Shown piece by piece: positions 9,168-63,726 of a stretch of DNA of 64,000 nucleotides. The number at the start of each line of letters is the position of its first letter. The stretch's first letter is position 1. The notes under the pieces were generated by a model, which was not told the origin of the DNA, ran no database searches, and was given only the letters and a program-made list of their open reading frames with translations. The position numbers were made by a program, and so were the translations under genes. Origin of the DNA: Candidatus Doudnabacteria bacterium RIFCSPHIGHO2_01_FULL_46_24 (GTDB lineage: Bacteria; Patescibacteriota; Doudnabacteria; UBA920; O2-02-FULL-48-8); NCBI GenBank assembly GCA_001777575.1, contig MFEL01000018.1, forward strand, positions 8,264-72,263, given 5' to 3'.

Positions 9168-9437
9168 TTATTTCTTCGCAACTCCTTTGGCGATATACTG
9201 CTTCATCAAAGATTGATAAGGCACGTCTAATTCATTAGCTTTTATTTTCACACGGGCCACGATATGGGATGGAATGCGCAGAGAAATAGATTGGGAAGTG
9301 GGCTTAAGATTTGGAAACAAGGGACCAATCATGGCTTTGGATAAATCAAAATATTCGGTAGAATCATGGGTATCCCAAAACTCCCGTTCTTCGTCTTCGT
9401 TCTTAAATTTAGGCAGCTTTTTTATATGTCTCTTCAT
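9168..9437 (-). CDS. brnA: BrnA-family antitoxin (ribbon-helix-helix), copy 1
   Basis: KKLPKFKNEDEEREFWDTHDSTEY ... VPYQSLMKQYIAKG, the typical BrnA pattern. Confidence 0.7.
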   Translation of the reverse strand: MKRHIKKLPKFKNEDEEREFWDTHDSTEYFDLSKAMIGPLFPNLKPTSQSISLRIPSHIVARVKIKANELDVPYQSLMKQYIAKGVAKK

Positions 9438-9717
9438 AAGTTTTCCTCTCTTTTTTATTCGCCGGGCGCGCAGATATTATTCTGATTCGCCGGGTTCTAA
9501 TTGTAAAAGCTACAAATAATAGTTTGCCTGCTTGAGTCTGGCCATACATGCCAAATCGCTTTTCGGTTTGGCTATGCCTCTGGTCTGGGAAAACTATATA
9601 AAAATTGAAAAATGATTCCTCGGTTTCCAGCTGAGTAATTCCATGTTTCTCTAAACTTTTAGCCTGATTGCCTTCATCCCACTCAAACCCTTCTGATTGA
9701 CTTAAATCTAGCCACAT
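9409..9717 (-). CDS. brnT: BrnT-family toxin (DUF497), copy 1
   Basis: FEWDEGNQAKSLEKHGIT ... IRIISARPANKKERKTYEE; start placed at M of MWLDLSQ because the track ORF to 9909 runs through an implausible hydrophobic leader. Confidence 0.65.
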   Translation of the reverse strand: MWLDLSQSEGFEWDEGNQAKSLEKHGITQLETEESFFNFYIVFPDQRHSQTEKRFGMYGQTQAGKLLFVAFTIRTRRIRIISARPANKKERKTYEETYKKAA

Positions 9718-9862
9718 AGACACAGTGTATATGGGAAACTCTACACTGTCAAGAGTATAATTAATACGCCACCCACCTATCATGATGGTTGTCAAATTTA
9801 CGTCCACGCTTGCGTATACGCAAATTACATAATTAATTACGTAATTAACACAACTGCCACGG

Positions 9863-9891
9863 TTGCCATGTTTGAAACCCAAGGCTATAAT
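9863..9891 (+). promoter_or_regulatory. sigma70-type promoter TTGCCA-17-TATAAT upstream of the 9919 ORF and glycerate kinase
   Basis: Hexamers and 17-nt spacer read directly. Confidence 0.45.
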
Positions 9892-9918
9892 GACCTTAAT
9901 TAATCTCAAAAAAATTAT

Positions 9919-15873: not shown

Positions 15874-15902
15874 AGAAGACCGCCCCCGTGGTCTTCTTTT
15901 TA
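15874..15902 (+). terminator. rho-independent terminator after proC
   Basis: AGAAGACC-gcccccgt-GGTCTTCT-ttttt. Confidence 0.5.
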
Positions 15903-15927
15903 TTTTGCGAAACAAAACAGAGCATGT

Positions 15928-15942
15928 GGAGGATGCCCCTCC
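15928..15942. repeat. solo arm GGAGGATGCCCCTCC of the in-frame palindromic element family, intergenic
   Basis: Identical to the right arm of the copies in uvrC and uvrA. Confidence 0.5.
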
Positions 15943-15948
15943 ACAATT

Positions 15949-17070
15949 TTACCAAAACCAATTGCTGGCGTCGACATTCTTGCCGGACTCTTCGGCGAGT
16001 TTTTTGAAGAGTTCTTTTTCTTTCTTGGACAATTTTGTGGGCGTAACCACGCGCACGGTGACCAGGTGGTCGCCGCGGCCGGATGATCGCAGATGCGGCA
16101 CACCTTTACTTTTGAGCCGAAAAATTTTGGCAGACTGGGTGCCGGCGGGAATCTTGAGCTCAACCTTGCCGTCCACAGTTTCAATTTCCGCAATAGCGCC
16201 CAACGCCGCCTGGTAGAAACTAATCGGAATTTCCGAAAGGATATTATCTCCTTCCCGCACGAAATTTGGGTGGGGTTTGACTTTGATGCGCAAATACAAA
16301 TCGCCAAAACCGGAGCCTTTGTAGCCTGCCTCGCCTTCGCCGGCAATCCGGATGCGCTGCCCATCATCAATGCCTGCCGGAATTTTTACCTTTAGCTTTT
16401 TGGTCCGGCGCATTATCCCTTGACCCTGGCACTTGGAACAAACCCGCTCCGGCACTTTGCCGCTGCCCTCGCATTCATCGCAGGCGGAAACTTGCGACAT
16501 TTGGCCAAAAATCGTGCTCCGCGAAATTCGAATTTGCCCCTGGCCGTGGCAGCGGGGACAGGTGGAAATTTTGCTGCCTGGTTCGGCGCCCGAGCCTTTG
16601 CAGTTGAGGCAGGTGTCTTTTTTGTCCAAAGAAATCTCCAGCTCCTTGCCAAATACTGCATCCTTGAAATCAATATTCAGCTCCATTTCCAAATCCACGC
16701 CGCGCTCGCGGCGGGCTTGAGTACGAGTGCTACCGCCAAAAATGTCGGAAAACATGTCAAAGGCATCCTCAAACTCGAAACCGCCGGTGTTGCCAAAGCC
16801 TCTGGTAAAATCGCTGAAATCGAAACCGCCAGCAAATCCGCCGCCGCCTCGCCGCGCCTGGTCAAAAGTCGTGCCAAACTGGTCGTATTGCTTGCGTTTC
16901 TCCGGGTCAGACAAAACCTGGTAAGCTTCGCTGACTTCTTTGAATTTCTGCTCATTGCCCTTGTGCTTGTCCGGATGGTGCTCGTGCGCCAAACGGCGAT
17001 ACGCCCGCTTGATGTCATCAGCCGACGCACTCTTGGGCAGGCCTAATGTTGAATAATAATCTTGCGCCAT
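15949..17070 (-). CDS. dnaJ: chaperone DnaJ
   Basis: J-domain HPD, G/F-rich region, four CxxCxGxG zinc repeats. Confidence 0.95.
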
Positions 17071-23851: not shown

Positions 23852-24118
23852 TTATTTCTTCATCACGCCTTTGGCGATATACTGCTTCATCAAGGCCTGG
23901 TAAGGAACATCCAGCTTGTTGGCCTCGACTTTCACTTGACTGATGATGTATTCGGGCAACCGGATGGAAATCGAGCGGGAAGTGGGCTTGAGATTGGGGA
24001 AAATAACATTTCGGGCCTTTGACCAATCCAGATATTCAGTCGAGTCGTGAGTATTCCAAAACTCAGCCTCTTCGTTTTCGGATTTAAATTTTGGGATTTT
24101 TTTAAATTTTTTCGCCAT
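23852..24118 (-). CDS. brnA: BrnA-family antitoxin, copy 2
   Basis: KKIPKFKSENEEAEFWNTHDSTEY ... VPYQALMKQYIAKG. Confidence 0.7.
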   Translation of the reverse strand: MAKKFKKIPKFKSENEEAEFWNTHDSTEYLDWSKARNVIFPNLKPTSRSISIRLPEYIISQVKVEANKLDVPYQALMKQYIAKGVMKK

Positions 24119-24404
24119 AGTGATAGTTCCTTTCTTTTTTATTTGCGCTACGCGCAGAAATAATTCTAATTTTATTATTTCGTATTGTAAAAACTACAAG
24201 TAAAATTCTGCCTGCGTTAGTTGATCCCAATAACTTATAACGCTGTTCTGTCTTGCTGTGCGACTCATCAAAATTCACAATCTTTTCATTAAAAAACGGT
24301 TCCTCAGCTTCTTTCGGCGTCACTCCATGCTTAAATCTAATCTTGGTTTGATTATATTGATCCCATTCAAAATCTATTGGCTCTGAAATCTCGGGATCTT
24401 TCAT
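24102..24404 (-). CDS. brnT: BrnT-family toxin (DUF497), copy 2
   Basis: FEWDQYNQTKIRFKHGVT ... IRIISARSANKKERNYH. Confidence 0.7.
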   Translation of the reverse strand: MKDPEISEPIDFEWDQYNQTKIRFKHGVTPKEAEEPFFNEKIVNFDESHSKTEQRYKLLGSTNAGRILLVVFTIRNNKIRIISARSANKKERNYHYGEKI

Positions 24405-27431: not shown

Positions 27432-30317
<2,886 letters not shown>

Positions 30318-30719: not shown

Positions 30720-32576
30720 ATGCAAAAAAGCTTAACAGATAAAATCAAAGAACTTCCCAACCAACCCGGGGTCTATATTTTCAAAGACGCCAAGGGTTTG
30801 ATTTTATATGTCGGCAAGGCGATTAACCTGCACAACCGCGTGCGGTCGTACTTTCGGGAGAGGCATCCTCCTGGCAGAGCGCCAATCTTGGAGGATGCCC
30901 CTCCACGCATCCAGCTCATGATTTCTCAAATCGCTGATCTAGATTACACAATCACGGACAATGAGCTGGAGAGCCTGCTTTTGGAAAACAACTTTATCAA
31001 GCAGCTTAAACCCAAATACAATATCTTGATGCGGGATGATAAAAATTATCTGTTCATCAAGATTAACATCAAGGACGAAATTCCCACGATCGGCTATGAC
31101 CGGAAACCAAGTGATAAGAATGCCAGATATTTCGGGCCTTATACTTCCAGCATTGCCATCAAAGACAATCTGCGTCTGGTGCGCAAAATCTTTCCTTACT
31201 GCGCCAACAAAAAAATCACAGGCAAGCCTTGTTTTTATTTCCACATCGGCAAATGCCCGGGCGTGTGCGTGGGTAAAATTTCGCTGGCAGAGTATCGCCA
31301 AAACTACATCGGAAAAATTATCCAATTTTTGCAGGGCAAGCAATTGGAAATTCTCAAAAATCTAAAACTCCAAATGCAGGGATATGCGCGGAGTAAAATG
31401 TTTGAAAAAGCCGCCAAAGTCCGCGACCAAATTTATGCGCTTAACCGGGTGTTAGAACGACAAAAACTGGTCTATCCCAAAAAAGTTGACCAGGATGTAT
31501 TCAGCATCCATGTCGAAGCATCAATCGCCTGCGTCAATTTGTTTATAATCCGCGAAGGCAAGCTGATCAGGAAAGAAAATTTTATTCTGGAAAACACCAA
31601 GGGCGCTCAAGTTGCAAAAATCCTCTCGGAATTTTTGCCTAGATATTATTTGGAGGCCACAGATTGGCCGAGGGAGATTCTGGTGCCGGCCTTGGAGGGG
31701 CATCCTCCCAGACTGGCGCGCGGCGAGGAGGATGCCCCTCCACCAAAAATTCTCGTCCCCACCCGCGGGCAGAAACTCAAGCTCATCAAACTCGGCGAAC
31801 TAAACGCCAAGCAATTCCTGGAAGCTCAATCAGACAAACATCTGTTGGAGGAGGCTCGGCTGATGAGTGCTCTGAAAGAGCTGCAACGAGTCTTAAATCT
31901 CAAAAAATTGCCTGGCCGGATCGAAGCTTACGATATCTCCAACATCCAAGGCAGGCACGCGGTAGGCTCTATGGTCGTGTTTGACTATGGACATCCGAAA
32001 AAAGAAGATTACCGGCGATTTAAGATTAAACGCCAGACCGTGTCCGCCGAAGGCTCGCCGAAGGCGGATGACTTCGCGATGATGCGGGAAGTTCTCACTA
32101 GGCGCTTTGGAAAAACAATAACTGTTAACAATAACGATAACCGCTCATGGCCGCTGCCTGACCTCATTCTCATCGACGGTGGACGCGGCCAACTCAATGC
32201 CGCCCAATCCGTAATTCGTAATTCGCAATTCGTAATTCCCGCAATTGGCCTCGCCAAGCGCCTGGAAGAAATCTTCGTTCCCGGACAATCCAAATCTTTA
32301 ATCCTACAACCGAACTCAATAGCGCTATTCTTGTTACAAAGGATCCGCGATGAGGCCCACCGCTTCGCCGTCACTTACCACCGCAAACTCCGCTCAAAAG
32401 CAGCCAAGGCTTCGGCCCTGGACCAAATTCCAGGCATCGGAAATGCAAAAAAACGAAAAATCCTGGCTTATTTCGGATCTGTGGCTAAAATCCGCCAAGC
32501 TCCCTTGGGAGAACTTGCCCAAATCGTCGGCAACGCGCTGGCCGAAAAAATCAAAGCCAGCCTGCCTGACCGGTAG
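30720..32576 (+). CDS. uvrC: excinuclease ABC subunit C
   Basis: GIY-YIG start PGVYIFKDAKGLILYVGKA, UvrBC-binding region, RNaseH-like and HhH C-terminus; real start is ATG 30720 (TATAAT 8 nt upstream), not the track start 30549. Confidence 0.92.
   Translation: MQKSLTDKIKELPNQPGVYIFKDAKGLILYVGKAINLHNRVRSYFRERHPPGRAPILEDAPPRIQLMISQIADLDYTITDNELESLLLENNFIKQLKPKYNILMRDDKNYLFIKINIKDEIPTIGYDRKPSDKNARYFGPYTSSIAIKDNLRLVRKIFPYCANKKITGKPCFYFHIGKCPGVCVGKISLAEYRQNYIGKIIQFLQGKQLEILKNLKLQMQGYARSKMFEKAAKVRDQIYALNRVLERQKLVYPKKVDQDVFSIHVEASIACVNLFIIREGKLIRKENFILENTKGAQVAKILSEFLPRYYLEATDWPREILVPALEGHPPRLARGEEDAPPPKILVPTRGQKLKLIKLGELNAKQFLEAQSDKHLLEEARLMSALKELQRVLNLKKLPGRIEAYDISNIQGRHAVGSMVVFDYGHPKKEDYRRFKIKRQTVSAEGSPKADDFAMMREVLTRRFGKTITVNNNDNRSWPLPDLILIDGGRGQLNAAQSVIRNSQFVIPAIGLAKRLEEIFVPGQSKSLILQPNSIALFLLQRIRDEAHRFAVTYHRKLRSKAAKASALDQIPGIGNAKKRKILAYFGSVAKIRQAPLGELAQIVGNALAEKIKASLPDR
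30858..30905. repeat. 48-bp palindromic element in frame in uvrC, copy 1 (encodes ERHPPGRAPILEDAPP)
   Basis: GGAGAGGCATCCTCC-tggcagagcgccaatctt-GGAGGATGCCCCTCC. Confidence 0.75.
31695..31742. repeat. 48-bp palindromic element in frame in uvrC, copy 2 (encodes EGHPPRLARGEEDAPP)
   Basis: GGAGGGGCATCCTCC-N18-GGAGGATGCCCCTCC. Confidence 0.75.
32206..32240. repeat. tandem AATCCGT/AATTCGT/AATTCGC heptamer array in frame in uvrC
   Basis: aatccgtaattcgtaattcgcaattcgtaattccc encodes SVIRNSQFVIP. Confidence 0.65.
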
Positions 32577-40059: not shown

Positions 40060-40177
40060 AGTCACTCAGCGTGAGTCTCGCCCCGCACCGGAGCGACAGC
40101 GACTGGTGCGGGGTATCAGCGCACCGAGCGCCGGCCGATGATTCTTCCTGTGGTAATTGAGGTATAATTAAAAAAAC

Positions 40178-40232
40178 AATTACGGATTGCGGATTAACGA
40201 ATTGCCAATTCGTAATTCGTTAATTCGTAATT
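40178..40232. repeat. intergenic tandem heptamer array (ATTACGG/ATTGCGG/AATTCGT family) upstream of the trpS promoter
   Basis: caattacggattgcggattaacgaattgccaattcgtaattcgttaattcgtaatt. Confidence 0.65.
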
Positions 40233-40264
40233 TTTTAATTTTAGAGTTATAATAAACTCACTCT

Positions 40265-43047: not shown

Positions 43048-43272
43048 ATGCCCACAGCCAAAACTCGAATCAACGTCAGTTTATCCGATGAATTAAACTC
43101 CGCTTTGAAAAAGTTGGCTTTGCGCGATCAAGTCCCCACCGCCACCAAAGCCGAACGGCTTTTGGAAATTGCTTTGGAAATCGAGGAAGACGAAGTCTGG
43201 GATAGAATCGCCAGGAATCGGCAAGATTCCAAAAGTACCCCTTATCTTACTCATAATCAAGCCTGGAAATGA
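43048..43272 (+). CDS. ribbon-helix-helix antitoxin (RelB/ParD-like)
   Basis: Small acidic protein; 4-bp overlap with downstream RelE/ParE gene. Confidence 0.5.
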   Translation: MPTAKTRINVSLSDELNSALKKLALRDQVPTATKAERLLEIALEIEEDEVWDRIARNRQDSKSTPYLTHNQAWK

Positions 43273-43544
43273 ACTTCGAGATTATTTATCATCCGTTGGT
43301 GGTGGGTGATGATATTCCTAAACTTTCGATTGGGTGGAAAACAAAAATTCAGAAAAAGATTGAAGAACGTTTAACTACTCACCCGGAAACTTACGGCAAG
43401 CCTTTGCGTAGATCGCTGAAAGGATATCGCAAACTGCGCGTCGGAGATTATCGCGTAATTTTTTTATTGGAAAAAAATATTGTCAAAATTCTCGTCATTC
43501 AGCACCGTTCAATCGTGTATGATAGAATTAACAAACGAATATAA
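43269..43544 (+). CDS. RelE/ParE-family toxin
   Basis: KLRVGDYRVIFLLEKNIVKILVIQHRSIVY C-terminal pattern. Confidence 0.65.
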   Translation: MNFEIIYHPLVVGDDIPKLSIGWKTKIQKKIEERLTTHPETYGKPLRRSLKGYRKLRVGDYRVIFLLEKNIVKILVIQHRSIVYDRINKRI

Positions 43545-44632
43545 TGTCATTTTCCATCGGCATTGTGGGTCTCCCCAACGTAGGCAAATCCACATTATTT
43601 AACGCACTCACGAAGCAGCAAGCCGCTGCTTCGAATTTTCCATTTACCACGATTGAGCCCAATGTCGGCGTGATTAATGTTCCAGATGAGAGACTGGCTA
43701 AACTGGCAGTACTTGAAAAATCCGAAAAAATTGTGCCAACCAGCATTGAATTCGTGGACATTGCCGGCTTGGTCAAAGGGGCGGCGGAAGGCGCGGGCTT
43801 AGGCAATAAATTCCTCTCTCATATCCGAGAAGTGGATGCCATTGTCCAGGTTGTGCGATTTTTTGAAAACAGCGACATTATCCATGTGGATGGTTCAGTC
43901 AACCCACAACGCGACATTGACGTCATCAACACGGAGTTGATGCTGGCGGATTTGGCTGCGGTTAGCAAACGGTTGGAAGGATTGCACCGAGATGTGAAAT
44001 CCGGGGACAAAGAGGCAATAGCGTTGAAAGATGCCTTGGAAAAAATCAAACAAGCTCTGGATTCAAGCCGGCCGGCCAAATCCGTGCAATTAACAGACGA
44101 ACCTTTGAGGCTGGTTAAGCAATTACAGCTTTTGACCATGAAGCCGGCGCTTTACGTGGCCAATGCCACGAACCAAGGGCCGAGCCAGGAGGGGCGCCCT
44201 CCCAGCAGAGCGCCAATCTTGGAGGGCGCCCCTCCAATCATAGCTCTCGACGTTAAGCTGGAATCAGAACTGGTGGAACTCAAGGACGAAGAACGGGCGG
44301 AATACATGAAAGAACTGGGCATCCAAGAATCAGGCTTAGACAGATTGGCAGCCGCAGCTTACAAGCTCCTGGATTTAATCACTTTTATCACGGCCGGACC
44401 GAAAGAATCCAAAGCCTGGACCATCAAGCGCGGCACCAAAGCGCCGCAGGCGGCAGGTATCATCCACACTGACTTTGAAAAAGGCTTTATCAAAGCCGAG
44501 GTCATTCAGTGGGACAAGCTTTTGGAAGCCGGCGGCTACGCGCAAGCAAGAGATAAGGGCTGGCTGCGGCTCGAAGGCAAAGAATATGTCATCACTGATG
44601 GCGACGTCTGCCATTTTAGATTTAATTTATAA
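43544..44632 (+). CDS. ychF: ribosome-binding ATPase YchF (Ola1)
   Basis: [22 protein letters not shown]-terminal domain. Confidence 0.92.
44188..44235. repeat. 48-bp palindromic element in frame in ychF (encodes [16 protein letters not shown]), variant with compensatory arm changes
   Basis: GGAGGGGCGCCCTCC-cagcagagcgccaatctt-GGAGGGCGCCCCTCC; spacer nearly identical to uvrC copy 1. Confidence 0.75.
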
Positions 44633-62949: not shown

Positions 62950-63726
62950 TTATAACTTGGCCTGTTTGATGAAATCGGGAAACAGCCTGACCTTCTTGCT
63001 GTCGTTGGGTTCGAACAAGAACGGGGCGACGTCCCGCGCTAATTCTGCAAAATCAAATTCTTTGATTAATTCAAGCAATCTCGCTCTTAATTGCTCAACG
63101 TTGTCAATATCCATCTTTTGCTTCAGATATTCGTAGTTGGGCTTGGTAAATGACAGCAAAAATACAATATCATAAAAATCGCGTCCCTTTGCTCGCTTGC
63201 GGCCAACCGCGGCGTTGATTTTTTGCGATAACAATAAATCCGGCGGGGTTACAAAAATTTCCGTAAAGACATCAAACTTATTCAGTATTTTCCTTTCCGG
63301 CTTATAGGAAACTCCATGGGCCAAACTGTCAATCTGGATCAGGATTTTTTCAGTTTGGTGAGCTGAAAGTCCGCTGCCAAAAAGAAGATCAGGCAAGCGG
63401 ACATTGCAGCGATAGGCCTCTTGGCCCACAATATCTATTTCAACCTTAAATCCGTCCGCTTCCAATCCTGCCTTAATCTTTTGGGCAACAGTCTCGAACG
63501 CTTGTTCTGATAAACCAAAATTATCAAAATCAATATCTTCCGAAAAGCGATTATTATCATAAACAATTCTCAATGCCGTGCCGCCTAAAAATGAAAGCTT
63601 CCCGGCATATTCTGAAGCGAAAATTATTTCTAAAATTTTATACTGCAAATATTCCCGAAGGAGAGAGCGCTTAAACGCTCTTAAGTTTTGCGGATATTGC
63701 TGTTGTATTTGTTCTATGGTTAGCAT
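62950..63726 (-). CDS. AbiEii/AbiGii-family nucleotidyltransferase toxin (DUF1814)
   Basis: LSFLGGTALRIVYDNNRFSEDIDFD motif. Confidence 0.7.
   Translation of the reverse strand: MLTIEQIQQQYPQNLRAFKRSLLREYLQYKILEIIFASEYAGKLSFLGGTALRIVYDNNRFSEDIDFDNFGLSEQAFETVAQKIKAGLEADGFKVEIDIVGQEAYRCNVRLPDLLFGSGLSAHQTEKILIQIDSLAHGVSYKPERKILNKFDVFTEIFVTPPDLLLSQKINAAVGRKRAKGRDFYDIVFLLSFTKPNYEYLKQKMDIDNVEQLRARLLELIKEFDFAELARDVAPFLFEPNDSKKVRLFPDFIKQAKL

Follow-up and report, generated by a model that had tools for sequence, protein, structure and literature searches.

Can a perfect palindrome inside the reading frame of a conserved gene persist for the sake of the nucleic acid hairpin that it forms, or is it the encoded peptide that matters? 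This question is raised by a 48-nt element within the gene for the GTPase YchF on a stretch of 64,000 nucleotides from Candidatus Doudnabacteria bacterium RIFCSPHIGHO2_01_FULL_46_24 (contig MFEL01000018.1, positions 8,264 to 72,263; hereafter the window), a member of the candidate phyla radiation (CPR). The interpretation which we favour with moderate confidence is a selfish palindromic repeat, related in kind to the inverted doublets of REP sequences (repetitive extragenic palindromes) called REPINs and to the Rickettsia palindromic elements (RPEs), that survives as a translated flexible loop of its host proteins. The pairing of its arms is kept beyond the requirements of coding, the same doublet recurs in unrelated genes, and its sites lie in loops of variable length.

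A family of inverted hairpin doublets

The ychF copy consists of two 15-nt arms on the plus strand, arm 1 at 44188..44202 (GGAGGGGCGCCCTCC, a 6-bp mini-palindrome with a GCG loop) and arm 2 at 44221..44235 (GGAGGGCGCCCCTCC, the exact reverse complement of arm 1), which enclose a spacer of 18 nt (44203..44220, CAGCAGAGCGCCAATCTT). Its host gene on the same strand (43544..44632, 362 amino acids) is identified as ychF by the Pfam domains MMR_HSR1 and YchF-GTPase_C, with the element making up residues 216-231. With respect to the other copies, arm 1 carries the substitutions A9->G and T10->C, and arm 2 the substitutions A6->G and T7->C; the affected positions pair mutually and complementarity is retained at 15/15, as the initial annotation had claimed when it described mirrored AT to GC changes in both arms. 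It had equally noted that the spacer is nearly identical to the spacer of the first copy in uvrC (TGGCAGAGCGCCAATCTT), and indeed 16 of the 18 positions agree. The hairpin is predicted to fold with -36.5 kcal/mol as RNA and with -20.4 kcal/mol as DNA (z = -5.6 in either case).

The window contains the full 48-nt element four times and, in addition, one solitary arm. Besides ychF, copies are located in uvrC (27432..30317 on the minus strand being the neighbouring uvrA of 961 amino acids, and 30720..32576 on the plus strand uvrC itself, 618 amino acids counted from MQKS...), namely uvrC copy 1 at 30857..30904 (plus strand, ERHPPGRAPILEDAPP) and uvrC copy 2 at 31694..31741 (plus strand, EGHPPRLARGEEDAPP, 15/15 paired), and in uvrA at 29554..29601, where the element is translated from the minus strand. 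The arms common to the other window copies are GGAGGGGCATCCTCC / GGAGGATGCCCCTCC. The pattern GGAGGGNNNCCCTCC, with at most one mismatch, has 7 matches in the window as compared to 0.18 expected from shuffled sequence, which excludes a chance origin of the arm matches. The arm unit is a 15-nt imperfect mini-palindrome of the form GGAGG-N5-CCTCC (GGAGGGGCAYCCTCC), a single arm folding as a mini-hairpin of 5-6 bp; the full element hence combines two of these small hairpins in inverted arrangement, two units of 15 nt and a spacer of 18 nt adding up to 48 nt or 16 codons. Across the nine distinct copies from the window and elsewhere, 12-15 of the 15 stem positions pair around a spacer of invariably 18 nt, the centre of which reads GCGC in eight copies and GCCC in the orthologous ychF locus L089. 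Folding energies of all copies as RNA lie between -26 and -37 kcal/mol, with z between -3 and -7, and the two copies folded as DNA gave -18.6 and -20.4 kcal/mol. Rfam 15 holds no family for the element, which gives just generic hairpin matches far below threshold; only two tRNAs in the window exceed the gathering threshold.

The solitary unit (15925..15945, minus strand; arm at 15928-15942) is intergenic, starts 4 nt downstream of the end of the dnaJ open reading frame (ORF) and forms an 8-bp hairpin (TGTGGAGG..CCTCCACA); it is the sole copy to match, on the minus strand, a terminator-like pattern. The convergent proC-like gene has a terminator-like hairpin of its own at 15874-15897. In the uvrA copy (29554-29601), the outer bases of the spacer, compared with the ychF spacer (44203-44220), resemble the consensus in reverse orientation and the core GAGCGCCA stays in forward orientation, a pattern suggesting that part of the loop was flipped in situ.

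Several established categories for a hairpin at this place were considered and rejected for the ychF copy. It is located in the middle of the ORF and followed by AATCATAGC without a U tract, and thus is no intrinsic terminator; the perfect stem lacks the bulges of a bulge-helix-bulge intron; and translational bypass of the T4 gene-60 type is incompatible with an open ORF without stop codon and with a conserved peptide. The geometry is wrong for a CRISPR repeat and the copies are far too few for a DNA-uptake sequence. An assembly artefact is rejected as the JGI, ENA, NCBI and Logan assemblies hold the identical sequence, and an identical YchF is encoded on Rifle aquifer contigs and in Candidatus Doudnabacteria metagenome-assembled genomes at NCBI.

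Stem pairing and reading frame

Constraint on the stem could be assessed on a small sample of nine distinct copies from four sites in at least four genomes. Watson-Crick pairing is found at 130 of the 135 stem pairs, and at 133 if G-U is included. Two pairs have switched on both sides, 9:40 (A-U, G-C) and 10:39 (C-G, U-A, also U-G). The five uncompensated pairs are three G-U and two A-C in the sense strand, a split uninformative on RNA versus DNA because a transition in a pair always yields either G-U or A-C. The count of arm covariation, as suggested by the initial annotation, hence turned up two-sided changes as well as one-sided ones, and the expectation set beforehand, that no arm change would lack its counterpart, formally failed: arm 2 of the uvrA copy reads GGAAG (G->A; U-G in the sense RNA), arm 1 of uvrC copy 1 reads GGAGA (G5->A; A-C), and the L089 copy carries three such changes.

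On the other hand, the stem has changed far less than its surroundings. The proteins encoded by the host genes of orthologous copies are 71-84 % identical, with an identity at fourfold degenerate sites of just 0.37-0.43, which is near saturation, yet the four fourfold degenerate sites within the stem show one change in 24 site-lineages versus about 9-10 expected (P about 5e-5 to 1.5e-4). Codon preference fails to explain this conservation because the stem uses rare codons, with GGG representing 15 % of the Gly and CCT 17 % of the Pro codons. Between the orthologous contigs L090 and L091, whose UvrC proteins are 71 % and uvrC genes 68 % (nucleotide) identical, the element is identical at 47 of 48 positions, and no other 48-nt segment along the gene is conserved as well (mean 33/48). 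In the other orthologue pairs, the arms alone stand out and the spacer is as diverged as the gene. Judged from these alignments, the nucleotide-level constraint on the arms is real. Wherever a stem position is synonymous, its partner in the opposite arm is a second-codon position; constraint on the protein and constraint on RNA or DNA are therefore not cleanly separable.

The coding side of the element is conserved as well. All four coding copies, including the uvrA copy from the other strand, are read in frame +1 and encode a 16-residue peptide of the form E-G-H/R-P-P ... E-D/G-A-P-P. Stop codons did not force this choice, since none of the six frames is closed in the window copies; one shared frame at four independent sites has a chance probability of about 1/27 (P about 0.04). 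Residues E1, P5, A8, E12, A14, P15 and P16 are invariant, and in a part of the spacer of the second uvrC copy (PPRLA) orthologues differ solely by synonymous changes. These features are what would be anticipated if the EGHPP...EDAPP peptide itself were selected, for instance as a proline-rich interaction loop, with the palindrome a by-product of the origin of the peptide. We regard such a protein-level module as highly improbable: rare stem codons are unchanged and fourfold degenerate stem sites are frozen, two members of the family (the solitary unit and the metagenomic copy L087) are intergenic, the peptide is predicted to be disordered, UvrA, UvrC and YchF are functionally unrelated, and most orthologues do not possess the peptide.

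The proposal of the initial annotation that selection acts on a hairpin rather than on the peptide therefore stands in part. Pairing is indeed kept beyond coding, as seen in the 130 of 135 pairs, the two two-sided switches, the frozen fourfold degenerate sites, the rare codons and the copies outside genes; the exclusive form of the proposal does not stand, as the peptide frame is conserved too and compensation could arise mutationally.

If the compensation were mutational, intrastrand template switching would transfer a change from one arm to its partner, or gene conversion would act between copies, and the paired changes would be uninformative on selection for a hairpin. We grant this explanation a modest chance. 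The double changes affect adjacent positions (9/10 with 6'/7'), so that one short templated patch could account for them, and the uvrA spacer resembles a partial flip of the consensus spacer. Furthermore, the arm variant tracks the genome and not the locus. AC/GT arms are found at the ychF and second uvrC sites in the SRR2238... assemblies and in L087, and AT/AT arms in the window at uvrA, at both uvrC copies and in the solitary unit; GC/GC arms are restricted to the window ychF copy. This closer association of the variant with the genome than with the locus fits an origin of new copies from a local master copy, and some homogenisation between copies may have occurred. However, correction of the arms is not efficient, because the three changes in L089 and the single ones in uvrA and uvrC copy 1 are kept uncorrected; the window ychF copy with its GC/GC arms has escaped homogenisation with the AT/AT copies, and the frozen fourfold degenerate stem sites need either constraint or very frequent correction. 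For the ychF copy, the double AT->GC change could have arisen via hairpin selection or hairpin-templated correction; it would in both cases reflect maintenance of the stem, and a separate function of this copy is not indicated.

Host loops and the age of the copies

Where in the host proteins does the element reside? The variable surface loop postulated for YchF by the initial annotation is supported by the length variation among orthologues, by alignment to the Thermus thermophilus YchF structure (2DBY) and by the AlphaFold model. The site is the coil between the strands 202-207 and 233-235, modelled by AlphaFold as coil 208-232 with a predicted local distance difference test score (pLDDT) below 50 at residues 213-224. 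By alignment, the site follows the G4 motif and precedes the G5 strand, and T. thermophilus YchF has a segment of similar length there, which serves as an indirect check on the remark of the initial annotation that E. coli YchF has a different sequence of equal length at this place; most Doudnabacteria YchF orthologues, of 350-351 amino acids, have a short loop with 11 residues fewer at this position. The UvrC and UvrA sites are likewise length-hypervariable loops in orthologue alignments, and uvrC copy 1 stands in place of a native loop of about 8-9 residues. As characteristic for RPEs, the element thus is an in-frame repeat in conserved genes that leaves the ORF unbroken, with a conserved peptide in one frame, at fold-compatible loop positions in YchF, UvrC and UvrA. 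Going by frame and position, it is predicted to be translated as a 16-residue coil of Pro, Gly and charged residues in hypervariable loops of conserved genes.

The copies differ in age. At the ychF site, the element is shared by P0002/L088 (YchF 82 % identical; GGAGGGGCACCCTCC...GGAGGGTGCCCCTCC, 15/15 paired, AC/GT arms) and by P0006/L089 (77 %; GGAGGGGCATCCTCC...GGAGGGCGCTCCTCC, 12/15 paired). At the second uvrC site, it is shared by P0123/L090 and P0124/L091, both 15/15 paired with AC/GT arms; 9 of the 18 spacer positions differ between these two and the window. Copy 1 of uvrC is a lineage-specific gain, as it is absent from all 95 aligned orthologues except a 100 %-identical fragment of the same protein, and the uvrA copy is absent from UvrA of L091, L102 and L103, proteins that are 86-88 % identical. 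By this distribution, the copies at the ychF and second uvrC sites are old and vertically inherited, and uvrC copy 1 and the uvrA copy recent lineage-specific gains; the family has therefore spread.

Conservation at orthologous sites is also the basis for a host-beneficial alternative, in which the 48-nt dyad is a conserved recognition or structure signal within coding sequence that links uvrA, uvrC and ychF, either at the RNA level, as a hairpin controlling how fast the mRNA decays or is translated (a substrate of the RNase III type or a ribosome pause), or as a DNA site for a dyad-binding protein. Stem nucleotides are conserved across species, the whole element including the spacer is near-identical between L090 and L091 despite 71 % protein identity, the central GCGC recurs in all distinct copies except one, the copies cluster in nucleotide-excision-repair genes, and the element is fixed in all sampled strains. 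Still, we consider a cis-acting element unlikely. Most Doudnabacteria orthologues are entirely devoid of it, the corresponding loops of a sister genome hold an unrelated palindrome, half of the spacer positions in L090/L091 deviate from the window, the non-Watson-Crick pairs are not biased towards one strand, and the element corresponds to no Rfam family.

Two irregular junctions involve the second uvrC copy. A 12-nt tandem duplication, AGCCTGGAGGGA / AGCCTGGAGGGG (SLEG-SLEG), extends across the left junction of the copy in L090 (L090:1219-1250). The 1-kb Rifle contig L100 (L100:1-1037) is a mosaic in which a fragment of infC (C-terminal part of IF3) is joined exactly at the arm start to a reverse-complemented second uvrC copy, followed by about 650-700 nt of uvrC and then by unrelated sequence. 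It could be chimeric owing to the assembly, have arisen by recombination between copies, or hint that infC holds a fifth copy; a native FLGEGH sequence in infC could likewise supply a 12-nt microhomology.

Beyond these orthologues, copies are rare. In species-representative genomes, 68 loci matched one arm together with GCGC, all of them by chance and without a partner arm, and the window's own species was not among them. The metagenome scan yielded one true copy, the intergenic and 15/15 paired L087:1652-1699, and two further matches that were dismissed as GC-rich tandem repeats; the metagenome collection is incomplete for the source, as it failed to yield Rifle contigs in which the element is known to occur. 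Since the lineage of the window itself came up in neither of the large scans, their negative outcome shows only that the element is not widespread. The source species is apparently missing from, or masked in, the genome and metagenome collections, despite exact matches of the window to both patterns. Among viral contigs, a loose scan gave six unrelated palindromes and a specific scan none. A profile search of 1.84 billion representative proteins recovered one true match, P0242, from the same Rifle population; P0241 and P0243 were false, the latter a marine 33-nt tandem repeat. Within the sequence searched, the family appears small and narrow.

Relation to known palindromic repeats

The closest architectural parallel are REPINs, inverted REP doublets that form hairpins, with less conserved spacers, common compensatory changes, singlets and an association with REP-associated tyrosine transposases (RAYTs) (Bertels & Rainey 2011, PMC3116915). 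The Doudnabacteria element shares with them the two imperfect-palindrome units inverted around a less conserved spacer, the hairpin predicted in single-stranded DNA or mRNA, the compensatory stem changes, the solitary units and the long vertical persistence at orthologous sites. REPINs are, however, extragenic, usually 70-110 nt long and present in tens to hundreds of copies, and the cognate RAYT is flanked by the same REPs (PMC3116915), whereas the element has 48 nt and, within the approximately 84 kb of its genome examined, was seen in few copies and with no RAYT linked to it; four of the five window copies are inside ORFs and translated, with only L087 and the solitary unit being intergenic.

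RPEs, on the other hand, are palindromic repeats of about 100-150 bp which in Rickettsia lie in frame within conserved genes that are unrelated to one another, encode in a single frame a conserved peptide at fold-compatible positions and add a segment to the protein (Ogata et al. 2000, as summarised in PMC10969869). The element resembles them in its in-frame location in unrelated conserved genes, its conserved peptide and its fold-compatible positions. It is set apart by length and host, being three times shorter and residing in a CPR bacterium, and differs further in that its arms are self-palindromic and that native loop residues are replaced.

A third comparison concerns MITEs (miniature transposable elements with inverted repeats), short non-autonomous repeats with terminal inverted repeats and target-site duplications. 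The element is similarly short and non-autonomous, with terminal inverted repeats of 15 bp and no coding capacity of its own. A classical MITE is nevertheless rejected, because a target-site duplication is lacking; nor was a related insertion sequence seen, and the 18 bp between the ends would be too short for the usual paired-end DDE complex.

What could have mobilised such a doublet? A sister genome, L102, whose YchF is 79 % identical to the window YchF, is informative in this respect. Its second uvrC site and the G4-G5 loop of its ychF hold, at L102:10943-10965 and L102:20782-20804, identical copies of a different palindromic repeat (AACTCCCCCCAACCCCCTCTTAAATTAAGAGGGGGTG, translated NSPQPPLKLRGG) that is in frame and unrelated to the GGAGG element, its palindromic sequence being CCCCCTCTTAAATTAAGAGGGGG. 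Related repeat-derived peptides occupy these loops in other Doudnabacteria (P0003, P0122, P0125, P0133, P0184, P0189). Between its RNase J and TrpRS genes, L102 encodes a RAYT-like Y1 transposase (L102:16303-16929, 208 amino acids, PF01797) with the motifs PNHFHFVI (HUH-like) and YIHNNP. Like in REP-RAYT systems, the gene is flanked on both sides (16277-16302 and 16942-16979) by REP-like hairpins, GGGGAGTCCTTG..CAAGGACTCCCC. The syntenic spacer of the window (40060-40264) has no such gene, just an AT-rich inverted repeat at 40186-40231.

We thus propose that the element belongs with the selfish, non-autonomous repeats of the REPIN/RPE type. An enzyme acting in trans would recognise its hairpin, most plausibly as formed by single-stranded DNA; the obvious candidate for this enzyme, and for a putative mobilisation, is a HUH Y1 transposase of the RAYT/IS200 type, and copies would persist only where a flexible loop of 16 residues is tolerated.

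Several observations weigh against this proposal. At every site, the native loop residues are largely gone, that is replaced, which simple transposition would not predict. Target-site duplications are not found, the flanks of all copies being without a shared direct repeat; the nearest approach is the 12-nt tandem at the left edge in L090. The suggested comparison of strain variants for presence/absence polymorphism was negative, with no element-free variant among near-identical strains. A transposase of any kind was not detected (PF01797, tblastn) in the approximately 84 kb of the window genome examined, and the hairpins that flank the RAYT-like gene of L102 differ from the GGAGG element. The copy number is low, with four full copies and one solitary arm in the same 84 kb, the 20 kb of this total that lie beyond the window having contributed no further copies, and public scans returned almost nothing else. 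Finally, three of the four full window copies fall within 2.2 kb at the uvrA/uvrC locus, which could point to function instead of local hopping.

Function would take its most far-reaching form if the dyad were a conserved coding-embedded recognition site for a hairpin- or dyad-binding factor that ties together the expression or maintenance of uvrA, uvrC and ychF. Candidates for the factor would be a HUH enzyme of the RAYT type that has become domesticated, or a nuclease resembling RNase III with the mRNA as its target. We hold this scenario to be decidedly unlikely; if true, it would mean that CPR bacteria rebuild whole protein loops from palindromic repeat DNA, and that sister species do so at the same loops with different repeat families.

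Returning to the selfish repeat, its significance lies in its location. CPR bacteria are known for odd insertions in conserved genes. To our knowledge, in-frame palindromic repeats in essential genes have been described mainly for Rickettsia, and REPINs are regarded as strictly extragenic. In the present case, a doublet of REPIN shape is predicted to be translated as part of UvrA, UvrC and YchF in a CPR bacterium, and sister genomes hold a different palindromic repeat in the same loops. A search of the literature yielded no report of comparable elements from CPR bacteria. If this holds in general, the loop insertions known from CPR proteins would have a concrete source in short hairpin repeats. 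The orthologous copies provide a natural experiment on the co-evolution of a nucleic acid hairpin with a coding frame, because each synonymous stem site has a second-codon position as its partner. By itself, the finding is no demonstration of a new mechanism.

With respect to the genomic neighbourhood, toxin-antitoxin and abortive-infection genes are dense in the window (43269-43544, 23852-24404, 9168-9909, 1953-2650 and 62950-63726). The set comprises a ParE-like gene that abuts the start of ychF, two BrnT/CopG pairs, PhdYeFM/PIN and AbiEii.

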